The notes beneath the pieces were generated by a model. The model ran no database searches. It was not told the origin of the DNA and saw nothing but the letters and a program-made list of their open reading frames with translations. Positions 162 to 56,770 of a DNA stretch of 64,000 nucleotides are shown here, piece after piece (within the stretch, counting starts at the first letter, position 1; every line of letters starts with the position of its first letter). A program made the position numbers and the translations under genes. Source of the DNA: Candidatus Sungiibacteriota bacterium (GTDB lineage: Bacteria; Patescibacteriota; Minisyncoccia; Sungbacterales; JACQCQ01). The DNA lies in NCBI GenBank assembly GCA_016201505.1, contig JACQCQ010000002.1, positions 76,750 through 140,749 of the forward strand, given 5' to 3'.

Positions 162-524
162 ATGGGGAAGGAATGGACAACCAAGCTGTATGAGGGCATA
201 GGCGTTGATCTAGTAGAGCTCGCTGCCATTAGAAGGGCTCGGTTTCCTTGGCGTGTCGCCGAGTATTTTTTAACCCCCCGTGAGTATAAAGAAGCCCAAA
301 ACTCATCAGATCTGTATCAATTTATTGCTTCGCGCTTTGCGGCAAAAGAAGCAGTCATCAAGGCCTTTCCGGCGGATCTTTCACCAAAAGACTTCGAAAT
401 CATTAAGGGCGGTAGGAAGCCAGAAGTGCGATTTATACATAAACAGCATGCGGGATTTCGGGCATTCGTAAGTCTTTCCCATTCAGAACACTACGTCATA
501 GGATTTGCCAAAGTTACCTCATGA
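162..524 (+). CDS. acpS: holo-[acyl-carrier-protein] synthase (4'-phosphopantetheinyl transferase, AcpS type)
   Basis: 120 aa. The N-terminal 'GIGVDLVEL' and 'FAAKEAVIKAF' motifs are typical of AcpS. Its stop overlaps the start of the next gene (ATGA). Confidence 0.75.
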   Translation: MGKEWTTKLYEGIGVDLVELAAIRRARFPWRVAEYFLTPREYKEAQNSSDLYQFIASRFAAKEAVIKAFPADLSPKDFEIIKGGRKPEVRFIHKQHAGFRAFVSLSHSEHYVIGFAKVTS

Positions 525-2242
525 ATGCGCTAGATTATCTAAAATTGGCTTCGCGTATCTCCGAAACCGATCGTGGACGATTTCCTTCAACCATTTCAGT
601 AAATATTATTACTAATTTTACTGATGATGTGTTTCTGAAAGTCTTGACCGGAATATGTCTTGAAAATTCAATCTATCCGGTCATTTGGAGAGCACCCTAC
701 AAGCAATATCATCTAGCGTTTAAATCAGGAGAAATTCCGAAAGATGTCGCCATCACGTTTATTTTCTTTTATCTAAATCCTTATCTTTACTCCGAATTCT
801 ATAATCCCGATCAGGTAAATGAACTATTCGACGATATTGAGAAGTTCGCCGAATCTACCAAAGGAACGGTGGTTATGAATTCGTTTATCACCCCCTACCG
901 AGGAGCATACGGCAATTTATTTGATAAAAGCGAGTTATTTAGCCTCGCTGAAAATTACAACCGGAGTTTATTTGAGCTTGAGAAAAGGTTAAAAAATTTC
1001 CGGGTCCTTGACGTAAATCGTCTCATGCACACACTCGGGGAACGACAGGCTCGTGATTTTAGGGGAATGTATGCCTTTGATTTTCCCTTTACGAATGATT
1101 TTGCAGTTGAGGTAGCGAAAGAATGGTTTTCTTATATTCGGGTGCTTTTGGGTAAAATCAAAAAATGCATTGTCGTGGACCTTGACGATACGGTATGGGG
1201 AGGGATATTGGGCGAAGTTGGGCCGCTGGGCATTCTTTTGGGAGAGGACTATCCGGGACGATGCTATCAAAACTTTCAGCGGGCTCTGGTTGAATTTCAT
1301 AACCGAGGCATTTTGCTCGCGATCAATAGCCGAAATAACTGGGAGGATGTAAAAGAGGTTTTTAATCAAAATCCGCACATGGTTTTAAAGGAAAGCCATT
1401 TTGCCTCAATTCAAACAAATTGGAATAACAAGGCCGATAATTTACGCGCCATTGCTGAAGAACTTAACATCGGCCTTGATAGCTTTGTCTTTTTTGATGA
1501 TGACCCCAATAATCGGGCGCTCGTCAAAACTATGCTGCCCGAGGTTTTAGTTCCCGAGTTTTCCATAGCGCCCGAGGAATATGTGAATATGCTCTATGGG
1601 CTTGACGAATTTAATCAGTTTGCGCTCACCGAGGAAGATACGGCCAGAGCCAAAATGTACGCCGAGGAACGCCAGCGCAAAGTAGTCGAGAAAGGCTCAG
1701 CGTCGTTCGATGAGTATATCGCAGGGCTCCAAATCGTGGTGAATGTTTCAGTAAATAAACTAGAGTATCTCACGCGTCTTTCCCAGCTAACATTAAAAAC
1801 CAATCAGTTTAATTTAACGACCAAGCGCTATTCAGAAAGCGAAGTTGCTGACTTAATCAAAAAAGGCTGTCGATTTTTTGCGGGCGATATCCAAGACAAA
1901 TTTGGTCGGTACGGAGTCACTATACTGGCTATTCTTTCTCCCCAAGAGAATGGAGTCGTTCGAATTGATAACTTTTTGATGAGCTGCCGCGTCGCAGGAC
2001 GAGGAGTTGAGTTTACTTTTTTTGATTACCTGCTTGAGCTCTTGGCCTCGGAAGGCGTAAAAAAAGTGACGGGACTGTTAATCGAAACACAAAAGAATCC
2101 TCCCGTAAGGGAGATTCTCCCCAATCTTGGATTCAAAATCAAAGAAAAAGGAGAAGGCGGGACTCTCTTTGAGATTAACCTAGAAGAGTATCAGATGTGT
2201 CAGCAACCGAACGTAAATCGGCATATCAAAATTGGATCCTGA
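521..2242 (+). CDS. FkbH-like HAD-IIIC family protein (N-terminal unknown domain + HAD/FkbH domain + C-terminal GNAT-like domain)
   Basis: 573 aa. The motif-I-like 'VVDLDDTVWGGILGEVG' matches the FkbH/HAD-IIIC signature (hhhDhDxTLWGG). The C-terminal ~150 aa look like an acyltransferase fold. It is co-oriented with ACP and MBOAT genes. Confidence 0.65.
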   Translation: MNALDYLKLASRISETDRGRFPSTISVNIITNFTDDVFLKVLTGICLENSIYPVIWRAPYKQYHLAFKSGEIPKDVAITFIFFYLNPYLYSEFYNPDQVNELFDDIEKFAESTKGTVVMNSFITPYRGAYGNLFDKSELFSLAENYNRSLFELEKRLKNFRVLDVNRLMHTLGERQARDFRGMYAFDFPFTNDFAVEVAKEWFSYIRVLLGKIKKCIVVDLDDTVWGGILGEVGPLGILLGEDYPGRCYQNFQRALVEFHNRGILLAINSRNNWEDVKEVFNQNPHMVLKESHFASIQTNWNNKADNLRAIAEELNIGLDSFVFFDDDPNNRALVKTMLPEVLVPEFSIAPEEYVNMLYGLDEFNQFALTEEDTARAKMYAEERQRKVVEKGSASFDEYIAGLQIVVNVSVNKLEYLTRLSQLTLKTNQFNLTTKRYSESEVADLIKKGCRFFAGDIQDKFGRYGVTILAILSPQENGVVRIDNFLMSCRVAGRGVEFTFFDYLLELLASEGVKKVTGLLIETQKNPPVREILPNLGFKIKEKGEGGTLFEINLEEYQMCQQPNVNRHIKIGS

Positions 2243-2243
2243 T

Positions 2244-2480
2244 ATGTCGAAACTTTCACATATTTTTTCTTCCATATTAGGTATTGATGAATCCCGCATC
2301 ACTCCAGATCTATCTCCCAATAATACTTCATCTTGGGATTCGCTGAATGCCATCATTCTTTTGACCGAAATCGAAAAAGCCTTTGCTACTAAATTTGATT
2401 TTAATGAGGCCATGTCAATTAAAAATTTTGGTGATGTTACTCAATTGATTGAATCGAAAGGACTCAATCCCCATGCCTGA
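2244..2480 (+). CDS. acyl carrier protein (DltC/ACP-like)
   Basis: About 78 aa with a 'SWDSLNAIILLTEIEKAF' Ser-containing DSL phosphopantetheine-attachment motif. The ATG at 2244 is preferred over the TTG at 2232 listed in the ORF track. Confidence 0.7.
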   Translation: MSKLSHIFSSILGIDESRITPDLSPNNTSSWDSLNAIILLTEIEKAFATKFDFNEAMSIKNFGDVTQLIESKGLNPHA

Positions 2481-2895
2481 AGCCATGGAACGAACCTACG
2501 AGGAACTAAAAACGGGTGAATCTTTTTCATTTGAAGTTCTTATCGACGAAGATCTCGTGGCAGCCTTTCGTCAACTTTCCGGCGACAGAAATCCGCTGCA
2601 TGAAAAAACAGAATATGCGCGAGCCTCTTCATTTGGGAAGCCTGTAGTACATGGCATGATTGCCGGCGCTTTCTTTTCTCGACTTGTCGGCATGCATCTG
2701 CCGGGAAAATTTGGGCTCTATCTTTCCCAGACGCTTCATTTTCGAAAGCCGATCTTCTTCGGAGATAAGGTTACGATCCGCGGAGAAATACTTGAAAAAA
2801 GTGAGGCCATGAAGACCATACGGGTCAAGACCGAGGCACTGACTCAAGACGGGATTTGTACGGACGGAGAAGCGCTGGTACGTTTGCTCAAATAA
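2473..2895 (+). CDS. MaoC-like (R)-specific enoyl dehydratase, hot-dog fold
   Basis: About 140 aa. 'NPLHEKTEYARASSFGKPVVHGM' is the MaoC/hot-dog signature (NPxH…VHG). The start was chosen at the ATG at 2473; the ORF-track start is a TTG. Confidence 0.65.
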   Translation: MPEAMERTYEELKTGESFSFEVLIDEDLVAAFRQLSGDRNPLHEKTEYARASSFGKPVVHGMIAGAFFSRLVGMHLPGKFGLYLSQTLHFRKPIFFGDKVTIRGEILEKSEAMKTIRVKTEALTQDGICTDGEALVRLLK

Positions 2896-2898
2896 GTC

Positions 2899-4341
2899 AT
2901 GGTTTTTAACTCATTTCAGTTTCTTCTCTTCTTTCCCGCGGTTGTGGCCATTTATTTTTTGTTGCCGCACTGCTGGCGCTGGGTTTTTCTCTTGCTTGCC
3001 AGCGGTTATTTCTATATGGCCTTTATCCCGAAATACATTTTCGTTCTGGGATTTTTGATTGTTATCGATTACTGGGCAGGGATCTTGATTGAACGAGCGC
3101 AAGCGCGAAAGCGATTTTTTTTGACTATCAGCATTCTCGCAAATGCCGGAATGCTGTTTGTTTTTAAATATTTCAATTTCTTTAATTCAAATCTCGATCA
3201 TCTTGCGCGTTTCCTTCACTGGAACTACCCCATCGGCTATTTGGCGTTGGCTCTGCCGCTCGGGCTCTCGTTTCATACCTTCCAGAGTCTTTCGTATGTC
3301 ATCGAGGTCTATCGCGGACGTCAAAAAGCTGAACGGAATTTCGGCATTTACGCCCTCTATGTAATGTTTTTTCCCCAGCTCGTCGCCGGCCCGATTGAAC
3401 GGCCGCAGAATCTGCTGCATCAGTTTTATGAGCGGCATATATTCCTGCCGGATCGCGTGGTTTTGGGACTGCGGCTGATGCTCTGGGGATTTTTCAAAAA
3501 GATTGTGGTGGCTGATAATATCGCCGGACTCGTGAATTTGGTATATGCCGCCCCGCCTCACTTTTCAGCGCCCGCAATACTGCTCGCCATCTTTCTTTTT
3601 ACCATTCAATTATACGCCGACTTCTCGGGATACTCGGACATTGCCAGAGGCTCGGCTCTGGTTCTCGGCTACCGCTTAATGGAGAATTTCAATCGCCCCT
3701 ATTTTGCAAAGTCGATAGCCGAATTCTGGAGGCGCTGGCATATTTCGCTTTCCAGCTGGCTTCGCGACTACATCTATTACCCGCTTGTTTTCAAAACCAG
3801 AAACCAGCCCGTTCGGGGCATGTATTTTGCGCTTCTTTTTACATTTCTTATATCCGGCGTCTGGCATGGAGCCGGTTGGACATTTTTAATTATGGGATTT
3901 TTATTCGGGTTTTATATTGTTTTTGGTTTAGTCACAAAATCATGGCGGGCATCAATACTGGAAAGTATCAAAATAGCGCGATGGCAGAACCTCCACGGCG
4001 CGATTCAGGCCTGTTTCACATTTTTGCTGGTTTCGTTCGCCTGGATTTTTTTTCGCGCCAGCTCGCTTCAGAACGCCTATGACATCATCCGCGGAACTTT
4101 TTTAAATTTTCGCTTCTCATACGCAGAGTTTAGTTCGCTCAATAAACTGCAAATCCTTTTTGGATTCATTGGAATTTCCGTTTTGTTCTTAGTTGAACTA
4201 ACTTCAAAAGATGCCGAGGTTTGGGGTCGGCTCCATTCTGTCGGGTCGCTTATGCGCTGGGGGATTTATAGCGGGCTCGCGCTTGCGATTTTGCTGCTGG
4301 GCTATTTTCGCGGCCAGACATTTATTTATTTCCAGTTTTGA
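2899..4341 (+). CDS. MBOAT family membrane-bound O-acyltransferase (DltB/AlgI-like)
   Basis: 480 aa and polytopic. The conserved His region 'ISGVWHGAGW' and the 'FWRRWHISLSSWLRDYIYYPL' block are typical of DltB/AlgI. Confidence 0.8.
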   Translation: MVFNSFQFLLFFPAVVAIYFLLPHCWRWVFLLLASGYFYMAFIPKYIFVLGFLIVIDYWAGILIERAQARKRFFLTISILANAGMLFVFKYFNFFNSNLDHLARFLHWNYPIGYLALALPLGLSFHTFQSLSYVIEVYRGRQKAERNFGIYALYVMFFPQLVAGPIERPQNLLHQFYERHIFLPDRVVLGLRLMLWGFFKKIVVADNIAGLVNLVYAAPPHFSAPAILLAIFLFTIQLYADFSGYSDIARGSALVLGYRLMENFNRPYFAKSIAEFWRRWHISLSSWLRDYIYYPLVFKTRNQPVRGMYFALLFTFLISGVWHGAGWTFLIMGFLFGFYIVFGLVTKSWRASILESIKIARWQNLHGAIQACFTFLLVSFAWIFFRASSLQNAYDIIRGTFLNFRFSYAEFSSLNKLQILFGFIGISVLFLVELTSKDAEVWGRLHSVGSLMRWGIYSGLALAILLLGYFRGQTFIYFQF

Positions 4342-4344
4342 TGC

Positions 4345-5292
4345 ATGAAAAATCTTACATTTTTTATTAAACTCGGCATTTTTTTGGGATTACTATCGCT
4401 CGCTGTTTTTTTAATTTCGGCAATCGGGCATGATTCAAATTCAGCCGCGGCCGTCATTTTAGATAAGCACGCGCTGCTTGCCGGCGCGCCATCGCCGAAA
4501 ATCATTTTAGTCGGCGGATCGAATATTACTTACGGTATTGACAGCCTGCGGATAGAGCGTGATGTCGGGCGTCCCGTCGTCAACATGGGTTATTCGCTCG
4601 GCGTTGGTTTGAGGTTCGCCCTAGAGGAAGTAAAACCAGATCTGAAAAAAGGCGACGCGGTTTTAGTGATTCCCGAATACGAACAATTTCAGGATTTATT
4701 TGAAGGCAATGGCGCGATCTTAGATTTAGTGCAGTATGATCCGTCGCTTGCGCGACACATAACTTCCTGGCGGCAGGTGCGCGAGATGGTTAAATATTTC
4801 CCGAACTTTTTGCAGAATAATTTTAAACGCGGCATGGTAGAGCCTCTCTTCCGTCGTTTCGGTCTTACCATTGGAAAAAGCGAACGCCGCTACTACCGCA
4901 GTGACTTTAATGCGGCTGGCGATCTCGTCGGCTATTTAAAAGATCCCCGATCCGATTCGATCGATATATCTCGATTAAATCCGGGGTATATCAATCCCGC
5001 TGCCATCGAGGCGCTCTCGAATTTCACCGCCTTTGCCAAACAAAAAGGCGCCCCGGTCGTTTTCATCTTCCCGTCTTACAGCACACCAGCCTATCAAGAA
5101 AATAAAGATACCGTCAATGCAATCTACAAAAAGCTCCAGCAGATTCGAGATCTGGTGATACCAGACTCGCCTAGCGATTTTATATTCTCCACGGGTCAAT
5201 TATTCGACAGCAGTTATCATTTGGTTGGCGCGGGTCGCGAAGATAGAACCTCTAGAATAATCGCGAAATTAAAAACGGTTTTGGCCCATTAA
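4345..5292 (+). CDS. DltD/AlgJ-like SGNH-fold accessory protein (membrane-anchored)
   Basis: 315 aa with an N-terminal TM helix. It has the block I 'ILVGGSNITYG' and a C-terminal 'DSSYHL' (DxxH) motif. It is positioned directly after the MBOAT gene, as dltD/algJ are. Confidence 0.55.
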   Translation: MKNLTFFIKLGIFLGLLSLAVFLISAIGHDSNSAAAVILDKHALLAGAPSPKIILVGGSNITYGIDSLRIERDVGRPVVNMGYSLGVGLRFALEEVKPDLKKGDAVLVIPEYEQFQDLFEGNGAILDLVQYDPSLARHITSWRQVREMVKYFPNFLQNNFKRGMVEPLFRRFGLTIGKSERRYYRSDFNAAGDLVGYLKDPRSDSIDISRLNPGYINPAAIEALSNFTAFAKQKGAPVVFIFPSYSTPAYQENKDTVNAIYKKLQQIRDLVIPDSPSDFIFSTGQLFDSSYHLVGAGREDRTSRIIAKLKTVLAH

Positions 5293-5327
5293 GCCAAAAC
5301 CCAAACAGGTATAGAATCAACCTGGCT

Positions 5328-6011
5328 ATGGAAAAGAAATCGGTGCCCTATATTCCGCAAGTTGAATTAAAAAAGCACGCCGGAGAAGTAAAAACCCAAC
5401 TGCGAGTTTCGGATACCTGGACTCTCCGAGAAAATATTTTTTGGGACTTCCTTGAGGCTCGCATTCCCAAAGAAGCGCGCATTTTAGATGTGGGCACGGG
5501 GCCGGGAACTCTCTTGCGCCAGCTGGAGAGCCGAGGCTGGCACAATTTAAAAGGCTTAGACATTGCTGACTTTATGGACGCTGACTTGAAGCCGAAGTTC
5601 GAGCTCGCCGTTACCGACTTGGATTTTGAGGCCGCACCCTTCGCCGCGAACAGTTTTGATTTAGTTTTCGCGCTTGAAGTTATTGAACACCTGGAGAATC
5701 CATTCCATTTTATTCGCGAAATGAGCCGTATTCTGGATGACGGGGGATATTGTATCTGTTCCGCGCCGAATCCATTTCACATCTGGAATAAAGTAAAATT
5801 CTTGCTGAAAGGGAATCTACAGCACTGGCACGTGTATAACGATCACATCACCTTTATGACAAAGGACGTTTTCAAAAAGACTGTGCTCCGCTATTTCTCA
5901 ATTGAAGAAATTAAATATCGCTGGGGCTATTTGCCGTATTTCCCAAAGATCAACATGCCGCGAACTGAATTATTTGGCAGGAATGTTTGCTATTTTCTTA
6001 AGAAGATTTGA
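5328..6011 (+). CDS. class I SAM-dependent methyltransferase
   Basis: 227 aa. Motif I is 'LDVGTGPGTL' and the motif II/III region is 'DLVFALEVIEHL'. Confidence 0.7.
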   Translation: MEKKSVPYIPQVELKKHAGEVKTQLRVSDTWTLRENIFWDFLEARIPKEARILDVGTGPGTLLRQLESRGWHNLKGLDIADFMDADLKPKFELAVTDLDFEAAPFAANSFDLVFALEVIEHLENPFHFIREMSRILDDGGYCICSAPNPFHIWNKVKFLLKGNLQHWHVYNDHITFMTKDVFKKTVLRYFSIEEIKYRWGYLPYFPKINMPRTELFGRNVCYFLKKI

Positions 6012-6032: not shown

Positions 6033-6052
6033 TGTGTCACAGCGTTGACACA
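6033..6052. promoter_or_regulatory. perfect inverted repeat TGTGTCA-N6-TGACACA upstream of the GC-rich transferase gene (candidate operator)
   Basis: The sequence tgtgtcacagcgttgacaca reads directly as an inverted repeat. An AT-rich stretch and a GGAG RBS follow. Confidence 0.35.
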
Positions 6053-6123: not shown

Positions 6124-7227
6124 TTGCCCAAAAAGGTTGTATTCTGCCTCGGAGATGGCGGCAACGGTGAGTACTACCTCGCCCTTCGTCCGCATCTGGA
6201 AGCGGCCGGTGTCGAGCACGAGGTACTGATGGATCCGAAGGGGGCTGCGAAGGTTCTCCTCGAGAAGAGGGGAATTCCCTTCAGGCTGACAGAGGGTAAG
6301 GAGGACATCGACTGCAAACAGTACGACCATGTCCTGGTCGGCAGCGGCAACAAGGCGCGCGATCTGATTAGGAACGCGACGGAGAACGCCCAGAAGGCAG
6401 GCGTTCGTGTCACCTGGTTCTGCGACATTCCGCACTCTGGGTGCGAAGAAGCCTTTCGAGATCTTGTCCCGTCGTCGATGGCCGTCTTCGACGGCCTGAC
6501 ACGGGACCGGCTTCTCAAGATGAAGTCGGCGCTCGACGAGAGCAAGATCTTCGTCATCGGCAATCCCGCCTTCGACAACCTGCCAACGCTGAAGAAGAAT
6601 CATGCAGTCTTGCGCGCGGCGATCTTCAGCTCGACGGGCCTTCGGGACCTGCAAGATCAGCTCGTCGTTTACTTCGGCTCTTCTTCGGCGCAGTTTGATC
6701 TCGTCGGTGAGTCGCTAGAGCCGCAGATCGAGTGGGTGCAGAAGAATCCGCGCGTGAAGTACTACTGCGCCACTCATCCCGCCGACCTGAAGAAGGATGA
6801 GGTCACTGCGCTCGTCGCAACGCTCGGCAGTCAACTCATAACCGAGAGGTTTTCCAACGACGATCTCACAGTTGCGGCCGACATGGTTGTCACCGATTAC
6901 TCAACGCTGGGGATTCAGTCATGCCTTATCGGCACGCCAACGGTGTTCCTGATGGGTCCGTCAGCCCAGGCTTACCAAGAGAAAGAGCGAGGAGCGAAGT
7001 ACCCGGTATTCCCGGTACTCGACCTCGCGCGTGGCTTTATCTACCAGGGGAAGAGCTACACGCCAGCCCTCGGCGTCTGGAACATCGCTCGCATCACCGA
7101 AGCGCTTGACAAGGTCCTCCTGGATCCGGATCAGTGGAGGCTGATGCGGCTTGCCGCCCAGCTTCCTGAGTTCGAACGCATGGCCGACGGCCACGCTGGA
7201 GAGCGGTTCATCAAGAACGTCCTGTAG
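6124..7227 (+). CDS. GT-B fold transferase, TagB/TagF (CDP-glycerol glycerophosphotransferase)-like; compositionally foreign (GC-rich) gene
   Basis: 367 aa with a TTG start after GGAGAAAGAGG. The C-terminal 'VVTDYSTLGIQSCLIGTPTVFL' resembles the TagF-family nucleotide-binding block. GC content is visibly far above the flanks, which produces spurious antisense ORFs. A stem-loop terminator sits at 7252–7290. Confidence 0.45.
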   Translation: MPKKVVFCLGDGGNGEYYLALRPHLEAAGVEHEVLMDPKGAAKVLLEKRGIPFRLTEGKEDIDCKQYDHVLVGSGNKARDLIRNATENAQKAGVRVTWFCDIPHSGCEEAFRDLVPSSMAVFDGLTRDRLLKMKSALDESKIFVIGNPAFDNLPTLKKNHAVLRAAIFSSTGLRDLQDQLVVYFGSSSAQFDLVGESLEPQIEWVQKNPRVKYYCATHPADLKKDEVTALVATLGSQLITERFSNDDLTVAADMVVTDYSTLGIQSCLIGTPTVFLMGPSAQAYQEKERGAKYPVFPVLDLARGFIYQGKSYTPALGVWNIARITEALDKVLLDPDQWRLMRLAAQLPEFERMADGHAGERFIKNVL

Positions 7228-7356: not shown

Positions 7357-8724
7357 TTATTGCAGATGCCTAAGCAGAAAATTCCCGATGCGCTCACCAG
7401 ATTTTCCGTCGATTTTCCAGACTTGCTCGTCAAATAATTTTTTTCTGCCTGCTTTGTGAATTGATGGATTTTCCACATATTTTTTGGTGGCCTCGACTAA
7501 TTCTTTTTCGTTGTTTACTCTCCAGCAAGCGCCCGTTTCCTGAACGTATTTATAATGCGTGATGTCCATGCTGTGGCGCACCGATATGTAATAGGGTTTA
7601 TTTTTGTAGCCGTCAAAAGCGATCAAAACAGTCGGCTTATCGTAAATGGCCGCCTCAATCGTCAGGGTCGACCCCGTGTTCATGGTGACGTCACTCCAGT
7701 AAATCGTAGAAATTAAAAGTTTTACGTCTTCTTCGTCGAACTCGCGATCGCCCTTGATCTCGGCAATGCTTTTCCCCGGAATATGGAAGACGACATTCTT
7801 CCAGCTTTTGAGATCGGCCAGGTCAACTTCATATTTTGGATGCGAGCGCACAAAAATGATCGATGGGGGCAGTTCGCCGCGCTCGATGGCATGGTTTAGC
7901 ATCTTTATGTGGTCCCGCGGGTCGTCAATCGCCAGCACCCCGCCCATGAAATAGGTGATTAATTTTTTTGACGGGTCGATGTTGAACATTTTAAAAAACT
8001 CATCGCGCGTGAGGCGCCACTCCGCTTTCAGGTAGTTGTCATATTGCGGCAGGCCGACAACCGTAACTCGATTTTCAGGCATGTCGCCGATCCTCATCGC
8101 CTCGCCTTTTATGTAGGGATTGTTCACGATTAACTGATCCGGCTTTACGCGGAGCATAGTTTTTGAGGTAAAATTATCCCAGCTTTTGGTCATGCCGATT
8201 GATGGAATGCCGCGGCGCCTGGCCGCCTTGATCAACGCAACAGAAGTTCCGTGGATCATATTCGTCCCGAAAACCAAAGATGGATTATATTTTTCAAAGT
8301 ATTTGTCCCAGATCGCGTCCTCATGGAACAGGGGATCAACGGCACGCACCAACTCGCGCCAGACGCGAAAATGACCGAGAAGCCAGATCGCCCGCTTTAA
8401 GGGCAGTATGACTTTATTGGCCAGCGACGGATTTTCGTAGACGAGTTTATTTTGTCTGATCTTAATCGTTCCCGTCGGGATGCTGTTGTATGAAACGGTG
8501 CGGACAAACTGGCGCATCGGATGTAAGTCGTACTCTAAATCCTCGATCGGCTCGACCATAAAATTCAAAGCCCTGAACCGGGCTTTATAATTAGTGACTT
8601 TTTTTTGGGGCACGAACAAGACGACGGAGAGATCCGGCGTACGCGCGAGCAGGGGATACATATCCGAGAGCATCAGATTTTTCGTCTCGGCTTGAGTGGG
8701 CAGCGCGATAAACAGAGTTTTCAT
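7357..8724 (-). CDS. TagB/TagF-like glycosyl/glycerophosphotransferase (GT-B)
   Basis: 455 aa. The C-terminal 'ISTIYWSDVTMNTGSTLTIEAAIYDKPTVLIAFDGY' resembles the CDP-glycerol glycerophosphotransferase family. Confidence 0.45.
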   Translation of the reverse strand: MKTLFIALPTQAETKNLMLSDMYPLLARTPDLSVVLFVPQKKVTNYKARFRALNFMVEPIEDLEYDLHPMRQFVRTVSYNSIPTGTIKIRQNKLVYENPSLANKVILPLKRAIWLLGHFRVWRELVRAVDPLFHEDAIWDKYFEKYNPSLVFGTNMIHGTSVALIKAARRRGIPSIGMTKSWDNFTSKTMLRVKPDQLIVNNPYIKGEAMRIGDMPENRVTVVGLPQYDNYLKAEWRLTRDEFFKMFNIDPSKKLITYFMGGVLAIDDPRDHIKMLNHAIERGELPPSIIFVRSHPKYEVDLADLKSWKNVVFHIPGKSIAEIKGDREFDEEDVKLLISTIYWSDVTMNTGSTLTIEAAIYDKPTVLIAFDGYKNKPYYISVRHSMDITHYKYVQETGACWRVNNEKELVEATKKYVENPSIHKAGRKKLFDEQVWKIDGKSGERIGNFLLRHLQ

Positions 8725-8796: not shown

Positions 8797-9513
8797 ATGA
8801 ATGTACTTGGCGTTATTGGCGCTCGATCCGGCTCGAAGACTATCCAGAATAAAAATATCAAGCTGCTTTTCGGGAAGCCGCTTTTGGTGTGGATCGCCGA
8901 GGCCGCTAAGAATTCGCAGTATGTCAACCGAGTTATTGTTTCCACCGATTCGCCGGCATACGCCGAGATTGCCAAACAGTATGCCATCGAGGCCCCCTTT
9001 ATGCGTCCGGCGGAATTAGCCGAGGACCATGTGCCGGATTTTGACTATCTCTATCACGCCGCGACCTGGCTGCATGAAAATGAAGGCTGGAAAGCCGATA
9101 TCATTTTGAGGCTCCCGCCGACCTCGCCCCTTTGCACGACGGAGCATATTGACGCCTGCGTTAAACTTTTAATGGATGATCCGGAGGCTGACTCATCCCG
9201 GACTATTACCCCGGCCTCAAAGCATCCTTATAAGCTCTGGCGCATAAACGGCAACTATATCGAGCCATTTCTCTCGGAAGAATATACTGGCTTGAAAGAC
9301 GCGCATAATATGCCGAGACAGGCCTTCCCCAAAGCTTTCCAGCATGTTGACGTGATTGCGCTCCGCTGGAAAACCTTGGTCGACGATAAATCCATGGCGG
9401 GGAAAAAGATTCGTTTTCACGAAATTCCCAAAATGAATGCCATTGATATTGACACGGAAGCGGATTTTAAAATTGCCGAAGAGTTGTTAAAAAAAAGAAT
9501 GCATGCCGAATAA
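8797..9513 (+). CDS. neuA: acylneuraminate/KDN cytidylyltransferase (CMP-nonulosonic acid synthetase, NeuA family)
   Basis: 238 aa. The N-terminal 'GVIGARSGSKTIQNKN' is typical of CMP-NeuAc/CMP-Kdo synthetases. Confidence 0.7.
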   Translation: MNVLGVIGARSGSKTIQNKNIKLLFGKPLLVWIAEAAKNSQYVNRVIVSTDSPAYAEIAKQYAIEAPFMRPAELAEDHVPDFDYLYHAATWLHENEGWKADIILRLPPTSPLCTTEHIDACVKLLMDDPEADSSRTITPASKHPYKLWRINGNYIEPFLSEEYTGLKDAHNMPRQAFPKAFQHVDVIALRWKTLVDDKSMAGKKIRFHEIPKMNAIDIDTEADFKIAEELLKKRMHAE

Positions 9514-10333
9514 AACGACGAGCGCCCTTTTTGATTTAACCGCTGAAGTTGCCATTGTCACCGGCGGGCAGGGACAACTGGGTTCGGAATATGTAAAAAC
9601 ATTGGCGGGCGCCGGTGCCTCGGTCGCAATTTTCGATATTGCTCCGCGGGTGCGGGATTCAAACCAAAATCTCATCGATCAGAAGTGGCCGGTCTCGACG
9701 CACGTGGTTGATATTTTAGAAAAAGATCAAATTGCCGGTGCCTTTGATGCAGTTGAAAAAACATTCGGGACGCCGACGATATTGATAAATAACGCCGGGC
9801 TGGACTCGCCGCCCGATGCTTCGGAAAAAGACAACGGCCCGTTTGAGACCTATCCCGAGTCCTCTTGGGATGCCGTCGTAAATTCGCACATCAAGGGAGC
9901 GTTTTTGATGTCGCAAGAATTCATCGGCCGGGCGAAAAAAGCAAAAAAGAAAGCCAGCATAATTAACGTCTCTTCAACCTACGGCCTGGTTTCGCCTGAT
10001 CAGTCGATCTACGAGTTTCGCCGCAAAAACGGCGCGTCATTTTATAAGCCCGTTGCCTATTCGGTGGCTAAATCGGGCATTTTGAATTTGACGCGCTGGC
10101 TGGCTGAATACGGCGGGCCGTTCGGGATTCGAGTGAATACTCTGGTGCCCGGAGGTGTATTCGCAAATCAAGATAAAGAATTTATCAAAGAATATTCAAG
10201 GCGCACCATGATCGGCCGCATGGCGAATGTCGATGAATACAACGGCGCAATTTTATTTTTGGCTTCCGCGAAAGCCTCTGCCTATATGACCGGCTCGATG
10301 CTCGTCATTGACGGGGGCTGGACCGCAAAATGA
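9503..10333 (+). CDS. SDR family NAD(P)-dependent oxidoreductase
   Basis: 276 aa with the 'VAIVTGGQGQLG' Rossmann motif and the active-site 'YSVAKSG' (YxxxK). Confidence 0.75.
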   Translation: MPNKTTSALFDLTAEVAIVTGGQGQLGSEYVKTLAGAGASVAIFDIAPRVRDSNQNLIDQKWPVSTHVVDILEKDQIAGAFDAVEKTFGTPTILINNAGLDSPPDASEKDNGPFETYPESSWDAVVNSHIKGAFLMSQEFIGRAKKAKKKASIINVSSTYGLVSPDQSIYEFRRKNGASFYKPVAYSVAKSGILNLTRWLAEYGGPFGIRVNTLVPGGVFANQDKEFIKEYSRRTMIGRMANVDEYNGAILFLASAKASAYMTGSMLVIDGGWTAK

Positions 10334-10340
10334 AAAAGCT

Positions 10341-11804
10341 ATGGCCTATCCGCGAAAAGTTCTGCACTGGATAAACGATGCAGAGGTGAAGGCCTCCTCA
10401 AATTCGGTATTTAAAAAAATAAACCCGGCAACGGGCGCGGTTTTAGCCGAAGTTGCCCGCGGCAATACGGCAGACGTCGAAAAAGCAGTTGCGGCCGGCA
10501 AAGCCGCACTCCCAGCTTGGTCGCGGACGCTGGTCGTGCGTCGCGGCGAGATTCTGCGAAATGCGGTCCTGCTGATGATGCAAAAAAAAGCTGAAATCGC
10601 CGAAATCACGGCGAGAGAAAGCGGCAAGGCGGCGGCGCTCGCTTTAGGTGAAGCCAGCGCGGCCATCGAATGCGGGTTTTTCTTTGCCGGAGAAGGACGG
10701 CGCTATTTCGGCGAGGTCTTAACGTCCGCGGAGGCGCATCGCGAAGTAACCATGGTGCGGCAGGCCAGCGGGCTCGGTGTGCTGCTGACGCCATTTAATA
10801 ATCCCGCGCCGGGGGTTGCCTGGAAACTTTTTCCGGCGCTTCTCTGCGGAAACTCCGTGATTATCAAATCGCACGAGGACGTTCCGTATGTCGCCGTATG
10901 GTTTGCTAAAATTTTAAAAGAGGCGGGGTTACCGAAAGGCGTACTTTCGGTGGTGCAGGGAACGGGTTCCGAAGCCGGTGAGCCGCTGACCCGGCATCCC
11001 GATGTCGCCTTCATTAGTCTTACCGGGTCCCCCGCAACCGGTAAAAAAGTTTTACACGCCGCAGCCGATCGGCTGGCCAAAGTTTCGATTGAATCCGGCG
11101 GCAAAAATCCATTTATTGTTTGCGATGACGCGGATTTAGATCGGGCCGCAACGCTGGCTTCGGCCTCAGCCTTCATTGATGCCGGTCAGCGCTGTGCGGC
11201 CGCGAGCCGCATTATCGTAATGGAGGCCGTCTACGAAGAATTTAAGCAGAAATTATTGGAGCGGGTAAAAGCGCTTAAAGTCGGCGATCAAGAAGGAGAT
11301 AATTACGGCGCCATTATCAACGAAAAGCGCATGCGAGCCATTCTCGATTCGATTGAAACAGCCAAGACTCGTGGTGCGCGTGTTGTATGCGGCGGCGAGC
11401 GGCTCACTGATGAATCTCATAAAAACGGATTTTTCATTTCGCCTGCCGTTCTTGAGGAGGTAGATCCGGATGACGAGATTTCACAAAAAGAAATCTTCGG
11501 ACCGGTGACGATTCTCTACCGCGTGAAGACATTTGACGAGGCGGTGGCGCTTGCCAACAATTCGCCGTTTCGATTATCGAGCGCTTTGCACACCAAAAGC
11601 ATCCATCGTGCGCAAGAATTTAAAGAGCAGTACCGCGGCGGGGTCGTGCGCATCAACGGCGCAACGCACGGCAGTGAGCCGCATATGCCCTTTGGCGGAC
11701 TCGGCCTTTCGGGCAACGGCTGGCGCGAGCCGGGAACGAAGGCACTCGACTTTTATTCCGAGTGGAAGCAAATCTCGACAGATCATGATCCGTTAAAAAT
11801 TTAG
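10341..11804 (+). CDS. aldehyde dehydrogenase family protein
   Basis: The catalytic 'ESGGKNP' and Cys region 'GQRCAAASR' are present, with an NAD-binding 'GSPATGKKV'. The ATG at 10341 is preferred over the TTG at 10308. Confidence 0.75.
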   Translation: MAYPRKVLHWINDAEVKASSNSVFKKINPATGAVLAEVARGNTADVEKAVAAGKAALPAWSRTLVVRRGEILRNAVLLMMQKKAEIAEITARESGKAAALALGEASAAIECGFFFAGEGRRYFGEVLTSAEAHREVTMVRQASGLGVLLTPFNNPAPGVAWKLFPALLCGNSVIIKSHEDVPYVAVWFAKILKEAGLPKGVLSVVQGTGSEAGEPLTRHPDVAFISLTGSPATGKKVLHAAADRLAKVSIESGGKNPFIVCDDADLDRAATLASASAFIDAGQRCAAASRIIVMEAVYEEFKQKLLERVKALKVGDQEGDNYGAIINEKRMRAILDSIETAKTRGARVVCGGERLTDESHKNGFFISPAVLEEVDPDDEISQKEIFGPVTILYRVKTFDEAVALANNSPFRLSSALHTKSIHRAQEFKEQYRGGVVRINGATHGSEPHMPFGGLGLSGNGWREPGTKALDFYSEWKQISTDHDPLKI

Positions 11805-11814
11805 ATTAATTTAT

Positions 11815-13746
11815 ATGGGAGAATTAGGCGGGGTTATTACCGAAACGGCGAAAAGCCTTCAGTTCATACCGCTGTCCGAAATAAAGCGCGTCAAGAAAAG
11901 TATTCATGATCCGGTAAGCCGGGCAAAAATCTTGGCCGATATCTTTCGCCTAAACGCTCTTTATATGATTATGAATGCTGGTTCGGGCCATATCGGATCC
12001 TCATTTTCGGCGATGGATATTGTCACCTGGCTTTGGACTGAAGTTCTTAAAAATCCTAACAATGTCCGCGCCCAAGAATCGGATATTTATTTTTCCTCCA
12101 AAGGACATGACGCGCCGGGCCTCTACGCGGTGATGGCGGGCATTGGCAAGCTCGATTTTGATTTGATTCACGCACTGCGAAGAATGAACGGGTTACCGGG
12201 ACATCCGGATGTGGCAACACCGGGCATCGCCGCAAATACCGGTGCGTTGGGGATGGGAATTTCAAAAGCGAAGGGCATGGCGCTTGCGCGAAGGCTCGAA
12301 AATAAAAAGGGCACGATTTATGTCTTGACCGGCGATGGTGAATTGCAGGAAGGCCAGTTCTGGGAATCGCTTCAGCCAACGGCCAATGCAAAATTATCCG
12401 AGATTGTCGTCATCATCGATCATAATAAAATTCAGTCTGACACCTGGGTGCGCGAGACGAGTGATCTCGGCGATCTGGAATACAAGTTAAGAGCTTTTAG
12501 CTGGGAGGTCGCGCGATGTAATGGAAATGATGTTTTGGAGATAAAAGAGAAACTCGAATATTTTAGAAGTATCACTGATAAACCAAAGATGTTAATCGCC
12601 GATACGAAAAAGGGAGCTGGCGTCTCATTCATGGAGGAAGTCGCCGAAGATGGATTTTATAAATTTCATAGCGGGGCGCCTTCGCTCGGTGATTATGAGC
12701 GGGCAACGCGTGAATTGGTTGAAAAGATTAATCAGAGGCTCGGTGAGGTTTGGGTTCAGCCAATACAGATTGAAACGCGGAGCATGCCGGCTCGAACGAC
12801 CCCACAAAATCCTGAGAGGCTCGTTTCTGCCTATAGCGATGAATTGATTGCGCTCGCGAAAGAAAATAAAGACATCCTAGCGCTCGACGCCGACCTCATT
12901 TTAGACACAGGACTCATCCCATTTAAAAAACAATTTCCCGATAGATTTTTCGAGTGCGGGATTGCCGAGCAAGACATGGTCTCCACCGCGGGAGGCATGG
13001 CGCTCGCCGGGAAAATTCCGATTGTGCATTCGTTTGCTTGTTTCCTTTCAACTCGGCCGAACGAGCAGATCTATAACAATATTACGGAAAAGAAAAAGGT
13101 GATTTACGTTGCCTCGCTTGCGGGAGTTCTGCCTGCCGGTCCCGGGCACTCGCATCAATCGGTGCGCGACATTTCAGCCGTCGGCGGAATGCCGGGACTC
13201 ATCTTGATTGAGCCGGCGAATGAAGCGGAGACGAAAATGGCGCTTCGCTGGGCGGTTAATGAGAATACAGAAAGCACCTATCTTCGACTAGTCAGCATCC
13301 CATCGGAAATCAATTATAAGCTTCCGCACGCTCACCAATTGATCCGCGGGCAGGGGGTAAAGATTAAAGACGGAAATAAGGCTCTTATCATTTCGTATGG
13401 CCCCTCGATGCTGATTCAGGCAGTGAAGGCGGCGGAGATTCTCGATCGAAAAAGTATTTCAACGGCAGTCATCAATATGCCGTGGTTAAATTGTGTTGAC
13501 GCAAGTTGGCTGGAAAAAGAAATTCAGGGATTTTCGCTGGTTATGACGCTCGACGATCACTATACGAATTTTGGCCAGGGGATGCTGATTGCTGGCGAGT
13601 TGGGAAAAATAAATTTTCGAGGGAAAATTATAACACATGGTATAATGTATGAAATCCCCGCCTCGGGACAAAACACGGAAGTTTTGAAATATCACAAACT
13701 GTATGCGGAGTCTTTAGCGGCGATGGTTCAGGAAGGTATTGGATAA
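11815..13746 (+). CDS. transketolase (fused N- and C-terminal sections, TPP-dependent)
   Basis: 643 aa. It has the 'GSGHIGSSFSAMDIV' TPP-binding N-terminal motif, 'LTGDGELQEGQFWE', and a C-terminal pyrimidine/transketolase-C region. Confidence 0.7.
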   Translation: MGELGGVITETAKSLQFIPLSEIKRVKKSIHDPVSRAKILADIFRLNALYMIMNAGSGHIGSSFSAMDIVTWLWTEVLKNPNNVRAQESDIYFSSKGHDAPGLYAVMAGIGKLDFDLIHALRRMNGLPGHPDVATPGIAANTGALGMGISKAKGMALARRLENKKGTIYVLTGDGELQEGQFWESLQPTANAKLSEIVVIIDHNKIQSDTWVRETSDLGDLEYKLRAFSWEVARCNGNDVLEIKEKLEYFRSITDKPKMLIADTKKGAGVSFMEEVAEDGFYKFHSGAPSLGDYERATRELVEKINQRLGEVWVQPIQIETRSMPARTTPQNPERLVSAYSDELIALAKENKDILALDADLILDTGLIPFKKQFPDRFFECGIAEQDMVSTAGGMALAGKIPIVHSFACFLSTRPNEQIYNNITEKKKVIYVASLAGVLPAGPGHSHQSVRDISAVGGMPGLILIEPANEAETKMALRWAVNENTESTYLRLVSIPSEINYKLPHAHQLIRGQGVKIKDGNKALIISYGPSMLIQAVKAAEILDRKSISTAVINMPWLNCVDASWLEKEIQGFSLVMTLDDHYTNFGQGMLIAGELGKINFRGKIITHGIMYEIPASGQNTEVLKYHKLYAESLAAMVQEGIG

Positions 13747-13756
13747 AAGAGAGATC

Positions 13757-14317
13757 ATGGAGGGACTGACAAAAATCCAGGGGGAACGACTAGCTGCCGT
13801 TAAAGCACTCATCACGGACTGCGATGGTGTTTTTAACACAGGACATGTGTTTGATGGGCCCGGTGTGCCATCACGCAAGATGCGCACGCATCATGACAGC
13901 ATGGGGTTTGAGCTCCTGCGCCGCGCGGGGATACCGGTTTTGATTTTAACCGCTGAAGCCGAGGACTACATCAAGCCGGTGGCCGAAAAAATGACGCGCG
14001 CCTTTCCGGCCGTGCCGGTTGAATACGCGGCAAACGTCAAGGGTAAGGCGAAAATCGAAGTCGCCGAGAATTGGCTCATTCCTAAAGGAGTTACACTCGC
14101 CGAGGCAGCCTATATGGGGGATGACATCGGCGATTACAAATTGCTGATGGCGGCAGGCTTTGCTGCCGCCCCGAGCCAGGCAAATCGGATTCTCGATCAC
14201 GTCCCAAATCTTTGGAGATCGTCTTGTCGCGGCGGCGACGGCGCCATCCGGGAACTCTGTGATCTGATCCTTGAAGCCAAAGGCATCGATCCATTGAACC
14301 TTGTCGCCGATCGCTAG
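13757..14317 (+). CDS. HAD-superfamily KdsC-like phosphatase (Kdo-8-P/KDN-9-P phosphatase family)
   Basis: It carries the 'LITDCDGVFNTGHVFDG' motif I (DxDG) of the KdsC subfamily and is adjacent to a NeuB-like synthase. Confidence 0.6.
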   Translation: MEGLTKIQGERLAAVKALITDCDGVFNTGHVFDGPGVPSRKMRTHHDSMGFELLRRAGIPVLILTAEAEDYIKPVAEKMTRAFPAVPVEYAANVKGKAKIEVAENWLIPKGVTLAEAAYMGDDIGDYKLLMAAGFAAAPSQANRILDHVPNLWRSSCRGGDGAIRELCDLILEAKGIDPLNLVADR

Positions 14318-14479
14318 TTTTTTTGGGGCTTACATTCTCATGGCTCCAGCAGTCGGGTTCGTTTTTGTCCGCCGCACGAGTGCAGCAGCCGCTTATTTTT
14401 TCACTAGACATTTTAGCCGAATCTGGTATTTTAACGCTGAAACAAAGTCGGTTGTATTTTCGTTGTAGATTGTAAAAGG

Positions 14480-15577
14480 ATGAGATTTCCCCTAGGAGCA
14501 AAACTAAAGCGATTAATCACGACCTTACCCCATAAGGTAAAGGTCGGGAGTCAGTATGTCGGCCAAGGCAAGCCGGTATTTTGCATTGCCGAGATCGGTA
14601 ACAACCACAACGGCGATTTCGAGCTGGCTAAAAGAACGATTGAGGCCGCTAAAGACGCGGGAGCCCAGGCCGTGAAGTTCCAACGCCGAGCCGTAGAAGC
14701 CGTATTTGTGCGCGAGATGCGCGAGATGGCGTACGATAACCCGCGCTCGATGGCTCCAACCTACGGCGAGCATCGAAAAAAGCTTGAACTCCCGATTGAA
14801 CAGCTCCGCGAGTTAAAAGAATTTTCGGAGAGTCTGGGTCTGGTATTTTTTGTGACTCCCTTTGATAAAAAAAGCGCCGACGATCTTGAATCAATCAATA
14901 TTGGGGCCTACAAAATCGCTTCGTTTGATGTGACCAATCTTTCGCTTCTGGGCCATGTTGCTAAAAAGGGCAAGCCGATTCTGCTTTCAACCGGCGGCTC
15001 GACGCTTGAAGAAATAGATACGGCCATTGAGACGATTTTAAAATACAACAATCGGCTGATTGTAAATCACTGCACCTCGATGTATCCCACACCGGATGAG
15101 AATTTAGATTTAAACATGCTGCCGGTATTGCGGGAGCGATATAAACCTTTGCCGATCGGCTACTCGGGGCATGAGCCGGATTTTCTGCCTTCTGTTATCG
15201 CAGTGGCGCTCGGCGCTTCGGCTGTTGAGCGTCATTTTACGATGGACAAAACCATGCGCGGATCGGATCACCACATGTCGATTGAGCCCCCGGAGTTTAA
15301 AAAGATGGTAGATGACATTAGACGAATTACGGTTGCGCTTGGCGCCAAGGAAAAACGCATCCATGCCGGCGAAATTCCCATCCGCGAAAAACATGCTAAA
15401 AGCCTAGCCACCCGTGTCCGCATTCCGAAAGGCGCCGTGATTACGCGCGCGATGCTGACCGTCAAAAGTCCGGGTACGGGGCTCAAGCCCTCGATGGTTG
15501 ATTTCATTGTCGGTAAAACGGCGCGCTACGACATTGACGAGGACGCATTGATTAAAACCGATTCATTTGAAGTCTAG
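14480..15577 (+). CDS. neuB: N-acetylneuraminate/KDN-9-phosphate synthase family (NeuB) with C-terminal SAF domain
   Basis: 365 aa. 'CIAEIGNNHNGDFELAKRTIEAAKDAGAQAVKFQ' is the NeuB signature. A C-terminal SAF (antifreeze-like) domain is present. Confidence 0.8.
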   Translation: MRFPLGAKLKRLITTLPHKVKVGSQYVGQGKPVFCIAEIGNNHNGDFELAKRTIEAAKDAGAQAVKFQRRAVEAVFVREMREMAYDNPRSMAPTYGEHRKKLELPIEQLRELKEFSESLGLVFFVTPFDKKSADDLESINIGAYKIASFDVTNLSLLGHVAKKGKPILLSTGGSTLEEIDTAIETILKYNNRLIVNHCTSMYPTPDENLDLNMLPVLRERYKPLPIGYSGHEPDFLPSVIAVALGASAVERHFTMDKTMRGSDHHMSIEPPEFKKMVDDIRRITVALGAKEKRIHAGEIPIREKHAKSLATRVRIPKGAVITRAMLTVKSPGTGLKPSMVDFIVGKTARYDIDEDALIKTDSFEV

Positions 15578-50675: not shown

Positions 50676-51133
50676 CGTTCATCATGGGGAAGGTCAGTAC
50701 GACTTCCCCTCCACAATTCAGGTACATACAAACATAAGTCGAATCGCAAATGGTTCGGCAGGCTCACCACAAGTGAATCTGTCGAACTTTCTCTCGATGA
50801 TTCTTGAGACTCGTAATTACATTACTTGTCCCGAGCGAAGTCGAGGGATCTCACTCGTTCTCTGATGAATGTCAGAGGACAAGAAAATAAAAAGCGGTTA
50901 TTAAGGGCGCATGGTGGATGCCTTGGCTTTAAACAGCGATGAAGGACGTAGCGTGCTTGCGATAAGCATCGGGGAGGTGGCGAGCAACCTTTGATCCGGT
51001 GATGTCCGAATGGGGAAACCCTAGGGGAGTAATGTTCCCTAACCCGTCGTGTAATAGCGATGTGGAGTCAACCTGGTGAAGTGAAACATCTCAGTAACCA
51101 GAGGAAAAGAAAACAAGTTGCTTCGCAACTTTT

Positions 51134-54130: not shown

Positions 54131-54142
54131 TGGAGGATATGA

Positions 54143-56739: not shown

Positions 56740-56770
<31 letters not shown>

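Follow-up and report, generated by a model that had tools for sequence, protein, structure and literature searches.

The locus considered here raises the question of how an acyl group destined for a surface polymer may be supplied from a carrier protein when no adenylating enzyme stands beside that carrier to charge it. It lies at positions 162–6011 of a 64,000-nucleotide stretch of DNA from a Candidatus Sungiibacteriota bacterium (contig JACQCQ010000002.1, positions 76,750 to 140,749), the whole of which is called the window below; a database protein with 100% identity assigns it to a metagenome-assembled genome of Candidatus Sungbacteria, within the Candidate Phyla Radiation (CPR). Seven genes encode an AcpS-type phosphopantetheinyl transferase, an FkbH-family loader, an acyl carrier protein (ACP), a MaoC-type dehydratase, an MBOAT (membrane-bound O-acyltransferase), an SGNH-fold protein and a methyltransferase. 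On balance, gene context leads us to regard this cassette as a probable self-contained system for the acylation of an extracytoplasmic glycan with a three-carbon (C3) acyl group. A preliminary description of the same DNA had proposed such a C3 acylation of a surface glycan by an MBOAT/SGNH pair, loaded by FkbH and independent of DltA, the adenylating enzyme of the D-alanylation (Dlt) pathway. The comparative evidence is best read in this way: the cassette is conserved and self-contained, the association of MBOAT and dehydratase is strong and no AMP-binding gene is annotated nearby. The reading continues to depend on gene context.

The seven open reading frames are all present on the + strand, co-directional and as tightly packed as previously described; neighbouring frames overlap or stand apart by 35 nt or less. 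Profile searches name six of them, assigning the AcpS, FkbH, PP-binding, MaoC, MBOAT and methyltransferase families. Longer alternatives exist for the frames of the ACP (from 2232) and the dehydratase (from 2449); independent gene calls on an identical contig make 2244 and 2473 the likely true starts.

The charging of the carrier is attributed to the 573-aa protein encoded at 521–2242 (+ strand), whose start is overlapped by the stop of the AcpS gene. TIGR01686, the FkbH domain, matches residues 213–540 with 291.1 bits (curated cut-off 146.65), and the HAD-IIIC model TIGR01681 scores 72.8 bits (cut-off 35.75). The protein comprises three domains: an N-terminal FkbH_N domain of SGNH/flavodoxin-like fold, a HAD-IIIC phosphatase with the motif DLDDT, and a C-terminal GNAT-fold transferase holding an invariant SCR cysteine, C489. 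Residues D220, D222, S270, K304, D326, D327 and S488-C489-R490 are invariant among 19 homologues, and both the HAD and the SCR motifs are present in 86 of 87 relatives. Judged by its sequence, with the HAD catalytic motifs (DxDxT, S/T, K and DD) and the C-terminal cysteine in place, the protein is assigned to the FkbH family, and the HAD-IIIC and GNAT-like parts of the preliminary description are borne out.

The stand-alone ACP of 78 aa (2244–2480, + strand) follows directly. It carries its phosphopantetheine serine within WDSLNAI and matches PP-binding with 29.6 bits, in keeping with the dedicated carrier with a DSL site that had been noted. Among the NCBIfam models only those of AcpP type match, all of them below cut-off (34 against 71 bits), and none for DltC does; the closest solved structures are likewise ACPs, DltC not being among the PDB matches. 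Upstream, the 120-aa AcpS (162–524, + strand) is recognized by PF01648 (52.8 bits) and TIGR00556 (56.9 bits). Its gene adjoins that of FkbH in those CPR loci whose neighbourhoods were read, and AcpS is predicted to be the dedicated activator of the cassette ACP. As for the missing DltA, a profile search found no adenylation (AMP-binding) domain within 162–23172 of the window, and no AMP-binding or DltA-like gene occurs in the Pfam-annotated neighbourhoods of the related loci L001–L006 and L173. The absence of an adenylation domain from the cassette, as originally stated, is upheld within this range.

Comparison with other genomes shows how constant this set of genes is. Neighbourhoods of FkbH homologues with 46–54% identity repeatedly show the core AcpS-FkbH-ACP-MaoC-(KR)-MBOAT-SGNH, where KR denotes a ketoreductase; counting more distant lineages as well, it was found in at least 19 other loci. 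Its flanks vary (L001, L002/3, L004/5, L006, L008, L010, L018, L093 and L173). The core is embedded in otherwise dissimilar glycan loci in L002/3, L004/5 and L006, and in L001 it stands alone, surrounded by mobile-element genes; within 10 kb there is neither a glycan gene nor a further acyltransferase. L173 holds the closest relative of the window MBOAT and shows the order MBOAT-AcpS-FkbH-ACP-MaoC-partner. A second lineage, with an FkbH of approximately 36% identity, has both order and orientation shuffled; it is represented by L017 (Nitrosopelagicus) and the metagenome loci L096, L099–L102, L115 and L139. Recurrence on this scale, in no fewer than 19 further loci, puts the arrangement well outside what chance would produce. 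The cassette is widespread in the CPR, occurs also in archaea and is not peculiar to this genome; the test of neighbourhood conservation thus returned the core from CPR bacteria and from a second lineage that includes marine ammonia-oxidising archaea. Two further observations concern individual loci. The KR-less cassette of L008 (Saccharibacteria) contains, at 13823–15283 between ACP and MaoC, a FAD-dependent amine-oxidase-like oxidoreductase and a GT-C-like membrane protein, and a 36-codon open frame at 3–110 of the window does not resemble the gene that lies upstream of the cassette in L004.

The strength of the association was addressed with hidden Markov models (HMMs) built from the cassette components and scanned over two sets of 80 loci, drawn respectively from GTDB species genomes and from JGI metagenomes. 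These 160 loci were gathered solely by FkbH similarity and are phylogenetically non-independent, and the HMMs, being CPR-derived, are biased towards the CPR. An ACP accompanies FkbH in 149 of the 160, spread over Acidobacteriota, Planctomycetota, Bacteroidales, Clostridia, Thaumarchaeota, DPANN and CPR; this tie, together with scores below every AcpP cut-off, speaks against the window ACP being a housekeeping one, a point on which the earlier interpretation hinged. A stand-alone MaoC is present in 36 of the loci and an MBOAT in 14, and 13 of these 14 also have the stand-alone MaoC (odds ratio 70, Fisher p = 6e-9, for loci that are not phylogenetically independent). The MBOAT-bearing loci belong to two distant lineages, the CPR, in which gene order is mostly kept, and the lineage of approximately 36% FkbH identity, in which it is shuffled. 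As the gene association persists despite rearrangement and across domains of life, it provides what is classically taken as evidence of functional coupling.

The MBOAT (480 aa, 2899–4341, + strand; PF03062, 84.5 bits) contains the catalytic-histidine motif RRWHISLSSW, with the histidine at about position 282, and WHISLS is kept in all cassette MBOATs. Against the DltB model TIGR04091 it reaches 141.2 bits at a cut-off of 375. Its C-terminus reads FIYFQF and fits the acyl-shuttle motif FxYxxF. A terminus of the form F[IF]YF[QKR]F is found in all full-length cassette MBOATs (426–496 aa), the archaeal ones included, and C-terminal FxYxxF is absent from the FkbH-linked MBOATs of 390–397 aa. Bacterial MBOATs load their acyl group onto the tyrosine of such a C-terminal shuttle, from which a serine of the SGNH partner collects it, and the acyl-tyrosine intermediate has been demonstrated for PatA and DltX (PMC12148441). 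In the Dlt pathway a microprotein, DltX, bears the motif and DltC acts as donor, whereas the remaining pathways all have the motif as a fused part of the MBOAT; Dlt is also the sole MBOAT/SGNH pathway known to employ a carrier protein, the others using acyl-coenzyme A (acyl-CoA) (PMC12148441). With no intergenic gap above 35 nt, the cassette has no room for a gene of a DltX-type microprotein. From its sequence the MBOAT is classed as an AlgI/PatA-type enzyme with a fused shuttle motif rather than as a DltB plus DltX. Of the “DltB/AlgI-like” label first given to it, the AlgI half stands; the length, the fused FIYFQF and the score against the DltB model tell against the other half. The short FkbH-linked MBOATs are encoded in L007 (8436–9629, 397 aa) and L065 (707–1879, 390 aa), are of approximately DltB length and might work with a separate DltX-like microprotein.

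Only 4 nt past the MBOAT stop begins the gene of the SGNH partner (315 aa, 4345–5292, + strand). The protein has an SGNH fold and a transmembrane anchor, S59 and H292 are invariant, and Ser59, within VGGSN, is the putative nucleophile. On these features it is presumed to be an extracytoplasmic acyl-enzyme that hands the acyl group to the acceptor. No Pfam or other model match to DltD was obtained for it; its anchored fold with the Ser/His pair agrees with the DltD/AlgJ-like SGNH protein previously described. As a separate observation, a single FkbH-ACP-MaoC-KR module in the CPR locus L002 (13211–18566) is followed by a pair of MBOATs, both of which have an AlgX-like SGNH partner to themselves; this suggests that one donor there serves two acceptors.

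The dehydratase (140 aa, 2473–2895, + strand) was correctly recognized as a MaoC-type hot-dog protein: PF01575 (MaoC_dehydratas) matches with 64.4 bits, the hydratase-2 motif is intact (LSGDRNPLH), and its Asp/His pair is kept in nearly all dehydratase orthologues. Among solved structures it comes closest to PhaJ (1iq6, E 2.7e-23), 5cpg and human HTD2, in line with a PhaJ-type (R)-3-hydroxyacyl-thioester dehydratase. Most relatives have a KR in the cassette next to it. The window has none, and it is not alone in this: the KR-less variant recurs in L006, L008, L010, L173 and several archaeal loci. A short-chain dehydrogenase/reductase (SDR) encoded at 9503–10333 was considered as the missing KR and rejected. 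It shows generic SDR similarity to the L001 KR (29% over 76 aa), and its match to the cassette-KR HMM (32 bits) is as weak as that of a 276-aa SDR beside NeuB which L004 encodes in addition to its cassette KR (48 bits, compared to 412 bits for the L004 cassette KR).

Characterised FkbH enzymes convert 1,3-bisphosphoglycerate into glyceryl-S-carrier protein. From 2,3-dihydroxypropanoyl-ACP, a dehydratase of the PhaJ type would yield the enol of pyruvoyl-ACP, and in KR-bearing cassettes reduction would lead on to lactyl-ACP. Since the window has no KR, we tentatively favour a pyruvoyl or enol-derived acyl group at this locus over a lactyl one. The dehydratase and methyltransferase had been likened to the tailoring steps of methoxymalonyl-ACP formation. 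That comparison was abandoned: the pathway (FkbG/H/I/J/K) uses two dehydrogenases and an O-methyltransferase and no dehydratase, and the cassette has no dehydrogenases of the FkbK/FkbI type. The better analogue is provided by the polyketide loading modules that join a dehydratase (DH) and a KR or methyltransferase (MT) to FkbH and ACP. BryA reportedly contains such a module in the order DH-KR-FkbH-ACP, and in OocJ the order is DH-MT-FkbH-ACP (PMC4552970). In suomilide biosynthesis, an FkbH-OMT-ST protein with an O-methyltransferase (OMT) domain, BslA, acts on a peptidyl carrier protein (PCP).

Family and fold assignments, catalytic motifs and the conserved gene association permit a course of events to be proposed, in which the substrate, all of the chemistry, the passage of the acyl group from ACP to MBOAT and the acceptor are inferred. 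AcpS would convert the dedicated ACP to its holo form. The FkbH enzyme would accept 1,3-bisphosphoglycerate, an acyl phosphate of glycolysis, its HAD domain would strip off the 3-phosphate, and the glyceryl unit would be held on Cys489 of the GNAT-fold domain before being passed to the ACP, a route that would require neither ATP nor an adenylating enzyme. The PhaJ/MaoC dehydratase would then take off the 3-hydroxyl to give 2-hydroxyacryloyl-ACP, i.e. the enol of pyruvoyl-ACP, which in most relatives the adjacent KR would turn into lactyl-ACP; in the window, without the KR, the group transferred would more likely be pyruvoyl or enol-derived and possibly O-methylated. The MBOAT would draw the acyl group from the phosphopantetheine arm of the ACP at the cytoplasmic face and move it to the tyrosine of its own FIYFQF outside the membrane, where Ser59 of the SGNH protein would pick it up and esterify a hydroxyl of the surface polymer made by the surrounding glycan locus.

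Support for the ACP as donor comes from lineages in which the module occurs without an MBOAT. There the gene after FkbH-ACP-MaoC(-KR) encodes a soluble acyltransferase: a member of the Antibiotic_NAT family in Methanosarcinales (L016, 5714–6637) and Woesearchaeota (L028, 7784–8686), in Clostridium moutaii (L039, 12449–13018) a GNAT, after which comes a cytidylyltransferase, and in a Verrucomicrobia locus (L055, 11778–13139) a protein in which ACP and GNAT are fused. We read FkbH-ACP-MaoC(-KR) as a portable donor module for C3-acyl-ACP that is combined with interchangeable transferases; because the slot after the module is filled by differing acyltransferases, the ACP would be the acyl donor for whichever transferase follows. 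The loci with soluble enzymes may serve the biosynthesis of N-lactyl or N-glyceroyl sugars. In the CPR cassettes the MBOAT and its SGNH partner are the sole transferases, and no other acyltransferase domain was found in the window between 162 and 23172.

Several observations weigh against acylation of the polymer from the ACP. The closest non-CPR homologues of the window MBOAT (51–52% identity; Clostridium sp. BNL1100, L089, and Cytophagales, L090) are plain MBOAT-partner pairs without ACP or FkbH, and they match it as closely as the MBOATs of other cassettes do. The MBOAT sequence yielded no signature that would mark the use of a carrier protein, and its fused shuttle motif is the hallmark of enzymes that use acyl-CoA (PMC12148441). 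A neighbour-joining tree places the cassette MBOATs in basal groups; it is star-like, weak and not decisive, and a clean split between cassette and plain MBOATs was not obtained. The SGNH partners of the cassettes fall into four families unrelated by BLAST, which suggests different acceptors in different organisms, and relatives of the window-type partner occur in glycan loci without an annotated MBOAT, so that the notion of this partner always accompanying an MBOAT was given up. The kinship among the 160 FkbH loci and the CPR origin of the component HMMs count here as well. Finally, the KR-less state leaves the final acyl group uncertain, and to our knowledge a pyruvoyl ester on a polysaccharide is without known precedent.

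Plain pairs and a fused motif would agree with two neighbours of unrelated function, an arrangement that we regard as unlikely. The MBOAT and SGNH protein would then be an acetyl-CoA-dependent O-acetyltransferase, as are AlgI/AlgJ and PatA/PatB, and the FkbH-ACP-dehydratase set would feed a cytoplasmic step through a transferase encoded elsewhere; N-acylation of a nonulosonic acid or amino sugar is an example. The same module does feed soluble N-acyltransferases in other phyla, Campylobacter jejuni has an FkbH-domain gene in a locus linked to a dimethylglyceric-acid derivative of pseudaminic acid, and the window cassette adjoins a nonulosonic-acid cluster. Still, neither the cassette nor the 23 kb examined in the window holds a further acyltransferase, the L001 cassette keeps MBOAT and SGNH protein even though it is isolated from glycan genes, and the MBOAT tracks the dehydratase-bearing module in bacteria and archaea despite shuffling, at the Fisher p value given above, which is unexpected for a generic O-acetyltransferase. 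A variant of the proposed logic, rather improbable in our view, would make the acyl group an O-methylated glycerate derivative (2-O-methylglyceryl or 2-methoxyacryloyl), the methyltransferase at 5328–6011 acting on the ACP-bound unit. The position of this gene at the close of the co-directional block, with a terminator-like hairpin after it, agrees with the variant, as do orthologues near the three most closely related cassettes, two of which (window and L173) have no KR, the precedents of OocJ and of suomilide loading with FkbH and an O-methyltransferase, and the dimethylglyceric-acid pseudaminic acid of C. jejuni flagellin. Conversely, no orthologue was detected near most cassettes, KR-less ones among them, the L004 copy lies 5 kb from a KR-containing cassette amid other sugar-modifying methyltransferases, and the family assignment is a generic one.

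Least probable by far is that ACP and AcpS belong to housekeeping fatty-acid synthesis or that the cassette makes a small polyketide or lipid. The ACP does find its best matches among AcpP-type models and solved ACPs, and MaoC proteins serve fatty-acid metabolism too; against this stand the sub-cut-off AcpP scores, the tie to FkbH, the lack of a ketosynthase, FabD acyltransferase or other Fab gene in the annotated neighbourhoods of L001–L006 and L173, and contexts that are glycan-biosynthesis loci apart from the isolated L001 cassette. Acylation of a surface glycan from the FkbH-loaded ACP remains the preferred reading.

The last gene of the co-directional block encodes a class I S-adenosylmethionine-dependent methyltransferase (227 aa, 5328–6011, + strand; Methyltransf_23, 69 bits), an assignment that is generic. 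Orthologues were found two genes downstream of the L173 cassette (37% identity) and 5 kb upstream of that in L004 (45% identity), and a single-sequence HMM detected none near most other cassettes, including the KR-less L006, L008 and L010. The gene is thus a recurrent neighbour seen by the three most closely related cassettes (window, L173 and L004) and not part of the core; its inclusion in the cassette, as first described, is right for its presence here and its recurrence in these relatives and does not extend to conservation. The enzyme may act on a glycan or sugar or on the C3 unit. A terminator-like hairpin at 6033–6052, 3′ of this gene, is a weak hint that the transcription unit ends past it, given that counts in the promoter/terminator scan were not above those in shuffled sequence.

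Downstream, two genes had been called TagB/F-like transferases. In the window both scores are sub-threshold, 18.9 and 22.2 bits. The former belongs to a 455-aa TagF-like GT-B protein (7357–8724, − strand; Glyphos_transf 18.9 bits, sub-cut-off; BFO_1060 family, 48 bits), which we treat as context and not as core. Orthologues of it stand next to the cassettes of L004 (47% identity) and L173 (29% identity), the latter with a recorded PF04464 match, and to this extent the earlier assignment gains ground. The TagF-like enzyme probably builds the acceptor polymer together with the cytidylyltransferase/NeuB cluster, a Wzy-like protein and a priming transferase.

This nonulosonic-acid-type cluster occupies 8797–15577 and consists of a PseF-like cytidylyltransferase (122 bits, sub-cut-off), an SDR, an aldehyde dehydrogenase, a fused 643-aa transketolase, a HAD phosphatase and NeuB. 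Synteny is seen in the CPR locus L004 (15503–21737), with cytidylyltransferase, NeuB, SDR, HAD and aldehyde dehydrogenase; the make-up of the cluster is unusual and its sugar product not obvious. Between cassette and TagF-like gene, a 367-aa gene at 6124–7227 with weak Epimerase_2 and TarB-like matches has a GC content of 0.589 (0.745 at third codon positions, GC3). The window as a whole is at 0.481 and the cassette genes at 0.36–0.48, and GC and GC3 above these values suggest that the gene is of recent foreign origin.

At the far side of the window, a large-subunit rRNA match lying within 50889–58628 spans 6.1 kb for a model of approximately 3 kb; hence, the gene carries large insertions. An open reading frame for a LAGLIDADG homing endonuclease (57114–57560) is located just 3′ of the large-subunit rRNA, the 5S rRNA is found at 58511–58628, and ARAGORN detected no tRNA in the whole 64 kb. 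Intron-rich rRNA genes have been reported for CPR bacteria.

Each component family of the cassette is known, and FkbH-ACP pairs in glycan loci have been annotated, albeit uncharacterised. Neither the coupling to an MBOAT-SGNH pair nor a description of a cassette that joins FkbH to an MBOAT, DltB, polysaccharide or Patescibacteria context was found in the literature searched, whose coverage leaves out most subscription-journal papers, so that absence is no proof. We put forward, tentatively and with less assurance than for the acylation itself, that the cassette represents a second, evolutionarily independent carrier-protein-dependent MBOAT-SGNH pathway, which places lactyl- or pyruvoyl-type esters on glycans of CPR bacteria and marine ammonia-oxidising archaea after ATP-free loading from 1,3-bisphosphoglycerate. 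If so, both the class of envelope modification and its donor route would be previously undescribed, and Dlt would no longer be the only MBOAT/SGNH pathway with a carrier protein among systems that otherwise all use acyl-CoA (PMC12148441). Such a pathway would unite the capture of an acyl phosphate, in place of adenylation, with polyketide-style tailoring on the carrier and a fused-motif MBOAT. It would offer a testable handle on how MBOATs choose between CoA and carrier-protein donors, and another on what decorates CPR cell envelopes and, in the cassette-bearing lineage of marine archaea, the surface glycans. CPR organisms are commonly reported to be devoid of fatty-acid synthesis, and the pathway would account for orphan ACP and AcpS genes in their reduced genomes. 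Viewed as a portable donor that plugs into MBOAT, GNAT or Antibiotic_NAT enzymes, FkbH-ACP(-DH-KR) could moreover aid the annotation of glycan loci and help locate the genes behind lactyl and glyceroyl substituents on bacterial sugars.

Among known systems, the Dlt pathway of Firmicutes (DltA-DltC-DltB-DltX-DltD), which D-alanylates teichoic acids, is the closest in logic. There, a thioester on a phosphopantetheinylated carrier is passed through an MBOAT and an FxYxxF acyl-tyrosine to an anchored SGNH protein and on to an extracytoplasmic polymer (PMC12148441), and the same path is proposed for the cassette. The parts differ throughout. An FkbH-family HAD/GNAT enzyme replaces the DltA-type adenylating ligase, the carrier is ACP-like and not a DltC, a 480-aa MBOAT with fused motif takes the place of a DltB of approximately 400 aa plus DltX, and the SGNH protein has no DltD Pfam match. 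The predicted acyl group is a C3 hydroxy- or keto-acid that adds no positive charge, unlike D-alanine, and the cassette has on-carrier tailoring by a dehydratase with or without a KR. With 141 bits against a DltB cut-off of 375, no match to DltC or DltD models and no DltA found within 162–23172, sequence comparison indicates that the cassette falls outside the Dlt family. The acyl-CoA-dependent pairs PatA/PatB, AlgI/AlgJ/AlgX and WssH/WssI share with it the C-terminal FxYxxF of the MBOAT, the adjacent N-terminally anchored SGNH protein and the setting in glycan loci, and such pairs are the closest sequence relatives of the window MBOAT. They are without carrier, phosphopantetheinyl transferase or loader, whereas the cassette has the AcpS-FkbH-ACP-dehydratase set, a gene context from which the donor of its MBOAT is predicted to be acyl-ACP rather than acyl-CoA.

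FkbH/OzmB-type loaders in polyketide synthase and nonribosomal peptide synthetase modules (OocJ, BryA, BslA) have in common with the cassette the FkbH domain with its HAD motifs and active-site cysteine, a cognate carrier and the tailoring of a tethered C3 unit. In the cassette, however, the parts are stand-alone proteins in a glycan locus with no ketosynthase or condensation domain after them, and the product is proposed to decorate a polymer instead of serving as starter or extender unit. In C. jejuni, the flagellin-glycosylation locus includes the FkbH-domain gene cj1302, and the flagellin glycan bears the dimethylglyceric-acid derivative of pseudaminic acid mentioned above. The region cj1299–cj1304, which we take to comprise acpP2, a methyltransferase, cj1302, fabH2 and acpP3, resembles the cassette in combining an FkbH-domain gene with ACPs and a methyltransferase beside nonulosonic-acid genes and in its (di-O-methyl)glyceric-acid substituent; cj1302 may supply the glyceroyl substituent. 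The region differs in that acylation of the sugar precursor is presumed to be cytoplasmic and in having neither an MBOAT/SGNH pair nor a MaoC dehydratase. Taken together, the cassette is a hybrid, in which the donor logic of Dlt, a carrier with its dedicated phosphopantetheinyl transferase, is set on the transferase architecture of PatA and AlgI.

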